Notes: a model not told the origin generated them from the sequence alone. Numbered from the stretch's first letter, positions 17,837 to 18,894 are shown. The stretch is 64,000 nucleotides of DNA from Escherichia coli (GCF_045037415.1 NZ_CP173438.1), one strand, 5' to 3'. Program-made: numbers and translations.

Positions 17837-18250
17837 GATCGTATGTGCCTTTATGATTGGTCTGTAGATAGTGTAGAGCAGAAAAGAAAAGGTGGAGTCA
17901 GAACAGGATGAAAGTCGGAGGATAAAAAGTCAGTTCAGGTATGGGGATTCAGTGCTTACCACCAGGACCTTACAATGGGGACAGCGAATATTAACGGTAG
18001 CCACTGATAAATTTTAAAAAAGAGAATATACCTAATATTCAACTAAACAGTGGCATCTTCAATATACTATTCAAAATATATTAAAGTCCCCCATGGGGTT
18101 ACCCGGAAGGGCCTCTATGTCTGTAATTCCTACTTATGTAGGAAATGTTGTACAGAACATTTATTATAATCCTATTCAATTATAATAATCATGCCATTAT
18201 TATATTTAAACACCAGAGCGTGTCGTTGGTATTTAATGGGGGAAGGTGAG

Positions 18251-18568
18251 ATGAAAAAGATAGCTGCTATATCATTAATTAGTATTTTTCTTATGTCTGG
18301 GTGTGCTGTACATAATGATGAGACAAGTATCGGTAAATTTGGTCTTGCATATAAAAGTAATATTCAGCGTAAACTCGATAACCAATACTACACCGAAGCC
18401 GAAGCTTCTTTAGCCAGGGGCAGAATATCTGGTGCAGAAAATATAGTAAAAAATGATGCAGCCCATTTCTGTGTTACTCAGGGCAAAAAAATGCAGATAG
18501 TTAAATTGAAGACAGAAGGTGCAGGATTACATGGCGTTGCTCGTCTGACATTCAAATGTGGAGAGTGA
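18251..18568 (+). CDS. yegR: Small lipoprotein YegR, 105 aa
   Basis: MKKIAAISLISIFLMSGC lipobox signal peptide; AT-rich gene in an AT-rich spacer; start at internal ATG 18251 of the 18191 ORF. Confidence 0.65.
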   Translation: MKKIAAISLISIFLMSGCAVHNDETSIGKFGLAYKSNIQRKLDNQYYTEAEASLARGRISGAENIVKNDAAHFCVTQGKKMQIVKLKTEGAGLHGVARLTFKCGE

Positions 18569-18894
18569 GAATAGATTCAAGACTACCATGCACATATTTA
18601 TTTTATCTGTGATGGGATATTCTTCAACACCATTATTGAATGTGAGTAATAATGACAAACAGATAGATGAAACTAAAGCAGAATTTTTATTTTATGCAGC
18701 CATCAGAAAATGATGTCAAAAATATTCCAATGCTTTAGGTTCATTTTTTGGTAAGCGTCAAACATGCGCGTTCTGGCTGTGCGTAACCGGAACCTGTGCG
18801 AGCACGATGTCGATAAGTGAAAGGCATCGTGCTATTAAGGGAGATTCTATCGATGTGGTCAATGGAAGACGGTGACCAGGGATAGGGCTTATGC

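Follow-up and report, generated by a model that had tools for sequence, protein, structure and literature searches.

The interval between yegS and cyaR

The window considered here, that is, the whole stretch of 64,000 nucleotides that was analyzed, belongs to an Escherichia coli chromosome and carries, in order, gatD, gatR, yegS, yegR, cyaR, yegQ/trhP, yegP, and baeR. The interval of interest is bounded on the left by the lipid kinase gene yegS (16937-17836, minus strand), a 299-aa ORF whose identity comes from the annotation of a genome that matches a 1.5-kb query (window 17700-19200) at 100%. To its right follow the divergent promoter spacer shared by yegS and yegR (17837-18250); yegR itself (18251-18568, plus strand), an intact gene for a predicted lipoprotein of 105 aa; a 169-bp segment (18574-18742, plus strand) in which a 41-codon ORF is found; a piece of DNA common to K-12 (18743-18835); and finally the small RNA gene cyaR, also named RyeE (18900-18985, minus strand), beyond which stands yegQ/trhP (19068-20429, minus strand).

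The initial annotation had given this order of yegS, yegR, and cyaR, together with the lack of ogrK and yegZ, and both hold. It had also described the interval as AT-rich. This is correct for 17837-18742, where the spacer and yegR each have a GC content of 37% and 18574-18742 has 30%, compared with a window-wide value of 52%, but the final 154 bp before the attachment core (18743-18896) are at 49% and hence not AT-rich.

The surroundings offer some observations of their own. The gatR gene (16076-16855) is intact and encodes 259 aa; the K-12 annotation makes it an N-terminally truncated pseudogene beside an IS3 transposase. A reading of the sequence also shows a REP-like inverted repeat (TGCCGGATAAGG...CCGTATCCGGCA, 16868-16899) in the gap from gatR to the 3' end of yegS. 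On the other side of the interval, yegP and yegQ are separated in the window by just a 146-bp spacer (20430-20575), and strain 90-9280 has a ParD/ParE toxin-antitoxin pair between these two genes (L014 1349-1943).

yegR, its promoter spacer, and the relic of a partner gene

What is the AT-rich DNA made of? On the sequence evidence, it is best described as yegR, its promoter spacer, and the relic of a partner gene, and not as phage debris. YegR is named "protein YegR" or "lipoprotein YegR" in RefSeq; its signal peptide, for which the lipoprotein matches are weak, ends in the lipobox LMSGC as read from the sequence. A local Pfam scan gave no YegR match, and homologues 81-98% identical to it carry the precomputed assignment PF27694:YegR; no solved structure related to YegR was found. 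As for its function, knocking out yegR gave no phenotype in glucose-limited chemostats (PMC3708739).

The spacer, 68% identical to its counterpart in a divergent Escherichia (locus L008), belongs to what has been described as an H-NS-marked divergent promoter region, yegRZ/yegS, and a promoter-like TTTAAA-17-TATTAT on its minus strand (18210-18182) has the hexamers listed in that same work (PMC3946193). A review gives the yegR promoter as a binding target of EvgA (PMC8147483). A palindrome with perfect arms, TTCCTACTTATGTAGGAA (18127-18144), lies about 107-124 bp upstream of the yegR start. Its two arms are kept in all E. coli loci and in the divergent Escherichia, despite the fast evolution of the spacer, while no such palindrome was found in the Cedecea-like loci scanned (L009-L018). 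It is an EvgA-box-like site and, for the box consensus used, the sole match in the 64 kb, for which 0.02 would be expected.

The nature of the 169-bp segment that follows yegR emerges from comparison with other genera. A YegR scan of species-representative genomes gave six loci. In the Cedecea-like loci L010 and L011, as well as in L015-L018 from metagenomic contigs, an intact ORF of 106-110 aa comes after yegR; it starts at the yegR stop or at most 4 bp after it and has a lipoprotein signal peptide ending in LLAGC or LLTGC. This partner family is rare and unnamed, with 11 clusters, and its resemblance to DUF4156 (PF13698) is weak, with scores of 17 and 13.8 bits for the intact homologues where the cut-off is 28.9. 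The YegR protein of this operon is 81-83% identical to that of the window, and the segment is collinear with the partner gene: the nucleotide alignment with L011 runs without interruption from yegR into it (window 18241-18687). By tblastn, partner residues 4-38 match window 18573-18683 (E 6e-7), and residues 58-67 (SDNDVKNIAM) match SENDVKNIPM at 18703-18732 in another frame (E 1e-3). BLASTP likewise aligns the 41-aa product of the ORF (18588-18713, plus strand) with the partner N-terminus in intact homologues (E 3e-7 and 5e-6). This product, however, has another residue in place of the lipobox Cys (GC to GY), and its homology stops after about 30 residues, giving way to out-of-frame ones. These alignments identify the 41-codon ORF as a presumptive pseudogene stump, the truncated and frameshifted 5' relic of the gene for the partner lipoprotein (106-112 aa) of yegR. 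The Cedecea-like operon differs from the E. coli arrangement in that it occupies another chromosomal site, and in that the partner gene of E. coli is dead or deleted.

The translation of the 41-codon ORF is exactly as quoted in the initial annotation, which had considered it the only other reading frame of the interval. This second point does not stand, and ORFs of 30-67 aa are also present at 17892-18017 and 18050-18169 and, on the minus strand, at 18741-18896 and 18758-18961. The two minus-strand ORFs gave no family match, and the four short ORFs that were scanned, the 41-codon one included, had no match in Pfam or NCBIfam.

The segment is found in 947 of 5426 complete E. coli genomes and is missing from 83% of them. 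Its carriers include UTI89, ATCC 25922, and NRG 857C, which presumably belong to phylogroup B2. It is missing from K-12 and from strain 90-9280 (L003), it has a diverged form in L005, and in the divergent Escherichia (yegS 86%, yegQ 95%, and cyaR 100% identical to the window) it is an intermediate relic, which keeps extra sequence including the FAHSFIVK lost from the window. Because it is present in this divergent Escherichia, in the diverged L005 lineage, and in 947 genomes, the segment is seen as ancestral, and the comparison suggests its later deletion in the lineage from which K-12 and most other E. coli descend. The junctions of this deletion show, by reading, just 1 nt of microhomology.

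The L005 locus comes from a record that deserves a remark. Filed as "Klebsiella oxytoca plasmid unnamed13" (NZ_CP069923.1), it is plain E. coli gat-yegS-yegR-yegQ DNA, and the same is true of a "Citrobacter sp." MAG (L006, DXKH01000116.1) and of a Xanthobacter contig with a coverage of 1.03 (L007, NZ_JAIVFN010000572.1). All three hold this DNA at 96-99% identity and are probably cases of contamination or mis-binning.

Might the 41-codon ORF nevertheless be a genuine small-protein gene, retained in the lineage that bears the relic? The window and the L005 variant, which are 93% identical, both have it open and of the same length, and in 897 genomes the conservation of the segment is 99% or more. 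This high conservation, however, is due to the close relatedness of the carrier genomes, and the two variants of the ORF differ at residues 2-11 (HIFILSVMGY in the window, YTFIFISDSC in L005). The ORF aligns with the beginning of a lipoprotein of 106-110 aa and has lost the lipobox Cys in the window, and the next homologous fragment falls in another frame; by reading, nothing like a Shine-Dalgarno sequence precedes its ATG (AAGACTACCATG). With its absence from most genomes and the lack of any family match, a functional small protein is very unlikely. The ORF is unannotated in the listed RefSeq carrier genomes, and for annotation purposes it is better treated as a pseudogene stump than as a small-protein candidate. 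The 169-bp segment can conveniently be used as a lineage marker.

Two candidates examined around this segment were set aside. The STnc410 small RNA (RF02060), at 18623-18747 on the minus strand, reached 19 bits against a gathering score of 50 (E = 0.5) and is treated as a chance match. The adjoining DNA (18743-18835, 49% GC) was tried as the decayed 3' end of the partner gene following a hint in a MAFFT alignment, and tblastn gave no support; neither the partner C-terminus nor P2 D/ogr had a significant match there. This piece is 94% identical to K-12 and contains a stable hairpin with a 9-bp stem (18801-18809 and 18825-18833, AGCACGATG/CATCGTGCT) with a 15-nt loop, which appears in both the MFE and the centroid folds. 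The hairpin (18801-18833) has no T-run on either strand, and it is kept in E. coli and not clearly so in L008. A tRNA search found none.

Another reading is that the AT-rich yegR block is cargo or debris of a phage, or of some other element, integrated at cyaR. Its base composition next to a known attachment site invites this thought, as does the match of YegR to phrog_21109 (E 2e-71); successive integrations at the core would, moreover, push older relics toward yegR, and Salmonella has a different low-GC gene beside cyaR. The apparent links to phages, however, lead back to the host. Only two "phage" records contain yegR: one is a prophage record with a gatR-yegS-yegR flank, the other a K-12-like chromosomal fragment, so that in both cases the gene lies in host DNA. 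The PHROG match most likely has the same cause, and phage cargo was rejected as an explanation of these matches. Elsewhere, the yegR-partner pair sits in an ordinary chromosomal context (GNAT, yegR, partner gene, nitroreductase, ivy, acs), and no phage-like sequence was found in 17837-18835. A partial core at 18836, discussed below, would, if real, mark yegR as host flank already at an old integration. The cargo reading is highly unlikely.

One of these records shows how far such leakage can go: the "phage" genome ON470606.1 (L004) begins with about 2.9 kb of host DNA (1-2900) comprising gatR, yegS, yegR, and the relic ORF, which is labelled hypothetical there. The family phrog_21109 is essentially YegR, and host flank appears to have leaked into phage resources.

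The AT-rich DNA is thus regarded here as a two-gene lipoprotein islet in decay. In this islet, yegR is intact and would be expressed from a spacer reportedly bound by H-NS and by EvgA, while the partner gene would have shrunk to a 169-bp stump, retaining the 41-codon ORF by chance; in most E. coli lineages, K-12 included, even the stump would have been deleted.

The P2 attachment site at cyaR and the remnant in K-12

At the interval's right end, and just outside the segment delimited by the initial annotation, lies a sequence of 27 nt, AAAAAATAAGCCTGTGTAAGGGAGATT (18897-18923), that matches the annotated attP core of phage P2 (AF063097 24356-24382) at 26/27 positions. This is the sole match in the window, which holds the core as a single-copy, unoccupied attB. 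The core coincides with the end of cyaR, a gene recognized by Rfam RF00112 over its full length (model positions 1-85) with 101.8 bits against a gathering score of 47 (E 1.6e-20). A terminator scan places the intrinsic terminator of cyaR at 18905-18932, overlapping the core, which forms the 3' half of the terminator.

How the site looks when occupied can be seen in strain 90-9280, where the core is the exact insertion point of a complete P2-like prophage of about 33.6 kb and is duplicated at both prophage ends. On the attL side (L003), int, C, and cox point toward yegR, and on the attR side (L014), D, ogr, the P arm, and the core lie toward cyaR. The body of cyaR is identical in this lysogen, and the 3' half of the terminator is supplied there by the phage core; it follows that P2 brings along a substitute for the part of cyaR it displaces. 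In mechanistic terms, and as far as the sequences allow, P2 Int would recombine attP with the 27-nt core at 18897-18923. Because attP carries the same 27 nt, integration would rebuild the cyaR terminator, and the resulting prophage would have int beside yegR and ogr beside cyaR. This arrangement is akin to that of the integrase targets found at the 3' ends of tRNA, tmRNA, and small RNA genes, where, as at cyaR, the core overlaps half of the terminator and the phage brings a replacement copy. Here the target is an Hfq-dependent small RNA instead of a tRNA, and in both cases the RNA gene survives integration.

The site itself is already known. We take it to be locI, which is the preferred site of P2 in E. 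coli C, and which Barreiro and Haggard-Ljungquist are said to have presented in 1992 as a P2 attachment site. Its 27-nt core is that of the window (26/27), its place at the 3' end of cyaR is identical, and so, in the lysogen, is the prophage orientation; nothing essential is different, and the window is the ordinary unoccupied form of this site, its empty allele. A published table of P2 insertion sites includes "cyaR RNA", with a P2-type prophage in strain W, "ogr-D'" in K-12, P2*B in strain B, and none in Crooks; it also records P2-type elements at rybB, another example of targeting the 3' end of a small RNA gene (PMC3032704 Table 2).

As for K-12, the initial annotation had placed a P2-like remnant with ogrK and yegZ here, and this is right: in K-12 (L001), yegZ, a fragment of D, and ogrK lie between yegR and cyaR, and the remnant is recorded in the title of a 1992 paper (Barreiro & Haggard-Ljungquist 1992). 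The content of the two loci differs, as the pairwise alignment makes plain, in two respects: a 603-bp insert is present in K-12, and the 169-bp segment (window 18574-18742) is missing from it. Att-like direct repeats do flank the insert. At its left edge an 18-nt truncated core, AAAAAATAAGCCCGTGTA, is fused directly to D' sequence, and at its right edge the full 27-nt core is found. K-12 would accordingly descend from a P2 lysogen at the cyaR site, in which an internal deletion from inside the attL core into gene D would have left D' (yegZ), ogrK, and attR.

No trace of these genes is seen in the window. A tblastn search with OgrK and the D fragment found neither Ogr nor D in all 64 kb (best E = 0.19), which bears out the earlier statement that no Ogr-like ORF is present; a scan for the CxxC...CxxC motif of the Ogr zinc finger and a blastn search of the window for Ogr/D were equally negative. 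When the K-12 remnant was compared with the whole window by blastn, the sole DNA match was a 31-nt stretch of the P arm, to which we return below.

Is the absence of ogrK and yegZ then a peculiarity of this strain? The frequencies among the 5426 genomes say otherwise. The K-12-type junction occurs in 356 of them, the attL-int junction of a P2-like prophage at the cyaR site in 747, and the region is contiguous over at least 80% of the 1.5-kb query in 4565. From the junction and contiguity counts, the empty state is that of the majority, about 80%. The outcome is mainly a correction: at this locus the exceptional strain is K-12, and the empty state of the window is the common one. Some genomes have an IS1 within the yegS-cyaR interval; one of them, NZ_CM142675.1, is otherwise 100% identical to the window.

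A detail of the core merits attention. Its position 13 (window 18909) is polymorphic, with T in the window and in the divergent Escherichia, and C in P2, K-12, the lysogen (L003, L014), and L005; in CyaR, the change turns a U-A pair of the terminator into U-G. A C at this position may mark the sites that have exchanged with a phage.

Could the empty site be of recent origin, with the lineage having once held a K-12-type remnant, or a full prophage, of which the interval is the excision or deletion scar? P2-like prophages are common enough at the site for the past occupancy of any lineage to be plausible, and excision mediated by Int and Cox would leave no trace. The window, however, contains the core once and shows nothing of D, ogr, int, or the P' arm; no more than 356 genomes have the K-12 junction; and the remnant of K-12 is unlikely to excise precisely, because it lacks int and cox. 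The T at position 13 of the window core fits a site not recently exchanged with a phage, since the phage core and those that followed integration (K-12, L003, L014) carry C. There is, in our judgment, only a very small chance that the site was emptied recently, and we regard it as an ordinary unoccupied attB.

A probable older fossil beside the core

The last point concerns the DNA immediately to the left of the core, which has more to tell than its short length would let one expect. The flank was aligned with P2, two other Peduovirus attP regions, K-12, and the divergent Escherichia. Three elements were recognized in it. First, an 11-nt sequence, TAAGGGAGATT (18836-18846), is an exact repeat of 18913-18923, the final 11 nt of the 27-nt core. 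Second, a putative P-arm Int-binding site (18850-18879) gives 27 identities in a 31-column local alignment with the annotated P arm of P2, including an exact 15-mer, TCGATGTGGTCAATG. Third, between this site and the core there is a shortened version of the spacer that holds the IHF site (18880-18896), which in all E. coli loci is some 15-16 nt shorter than in P2 (alignments A2 and A4). The second and third elements together make up what appears to be the left arm of a P2-type attP in fossil form (18850-18896). Of the Int arm repeats (tgTGGaCa), the first, TGTGGTCA, is intact, and the second has degraded to GGAAGAC.

The divergent Escherichia completes this picture. In E. coli the flank consists of the P arm, the gap of about 15-16 nt, and the core; in L008 it consists of a degraded P arm, the IHF spacer, which is kept there, and the core. 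Its match to P2, at 31 of 35 columns, takes in the 3' end of the P arm and reaches into the IHF spacer, with a score of 43 against a shuffle maximum of 25 (reached by 0/300 shuffles).

It might be objected that such a flank resembles the P arm by chance, or that it is a host sequence copied by the phage. The similarity is indeed short, 31 nt in E. coli and 35 nt in L008. Nonetheless, it includes an exact 8-mer in addition to the 15-mer, it lies on the same side of the core as in attP, and its score in E. coli, 38, was likewise reached by none of 300 shuffles, whose maximum was 25-29. The distance from arm to core is similar but shorter (17 nt against 35 nt in P2), and E. coli and L008 keep complementary parts, which together rebuild the P arm, the IHF site, and the core. 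The arm repeat is also present in the P' arm of the phage and across P2-type phages, hence is phage-native, as described in the literature (PMC3448106). Both versions of the objection are very improbable, and the flank is read in what follows as a remnant of phage origin.

The initial annotation had proposed that the segment may mark an old integration scar. This survives in part: a scar can be recognized in the partial core and the decayed P arm at 18836-18896, whereas the AT-rich DNA is not part of it. Because it is common to the window and K-12, the scar would predate the K-12 remnant and have no relation to it. The two are nonetheless comparable, as they share the locus and the phage family and both would be deletion derivatives that kept attR. 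They differ in that the remnant of K-12 measures 603 bp and has an intact ogr, while the fossil measures about 60 bp and has no gene; and in that the fossil, unlike the remnant, is present in all the E. coli loci examined and in the divergent Escherichia, a distribution that makes it much the older of the two.

A sequence of events, with transfer from phage to host, can be proposed. An ancestral Escherichia would have carried a P2-like prophage at cyaR, which would then have been almost wholly deleted, and the attR of this prophage would now serve as attB. The 60 bp to the left of the core would be what remains of it, namely the partial core, two Int arm repeats of which one is intact and the other degraded, and the shortened IHF spacer. 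Among these, the partial core is probably the relic of the old attL, and it is the weakest part of the account: it has 11 nt, of which 10/11 are matched in L003 and L005 and 8/11 in K-12, and it is unrecognizable in L008. To the left of the fossil, the ogr terminator, ogr, and D of the older prophage had no significant DNA or protein match in the window or in L008, where the 3' half of the ogr terminator showed an apparent resemblance of 60% in alignment A2. The comparators include none with a pristine attB, or with yegS beside cyaR and no yegR, and it is from the loci described that we infer the boundaries of the islet and the polarity of the events.

Does the fossil still do something? Between lineages it has 0-3 differences in 47 nt, and the neighboring noncoding DNA is 93-94% identical. 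Because its divergence is no lower than that of this DNA, neutral decay is suggested, with no sign of upkeep by selection. It is conceivable that the fossil is not inert, and that P2 Int is drawn to the chromosome by the intact Int arm-type repeat that lies 40 bp from the core. We consider this distinctly unlikely; if it were so, attB would act as a partial attR, not as a site made of the core only, and this could help to explain the preference of P2 for it. No mention of the decayed P-arm copy was found in the literature searched; the primary papers of 1989 and 1992 fall outside that search and may describe it.

Collectively, the interval is, with high confidence, the sum of two unrelated things: a lipoprotein islet in decay, and an unoccupied P2 site that holds the fossil of an older prophage. 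The fossil P arm and the partner stump are small additions of known kinds, a prophage scar and a pseudogene relic. Their meaning for the biology of these phages and their host goes somewhat further. The attB that P2 prefers would be the leftover attR of an older P2-like prophage, and the locus would then hold layered fossils from repeated use of the same site. It would also show how the copy of a small RNA terminator borne by a phage can become the resident one.
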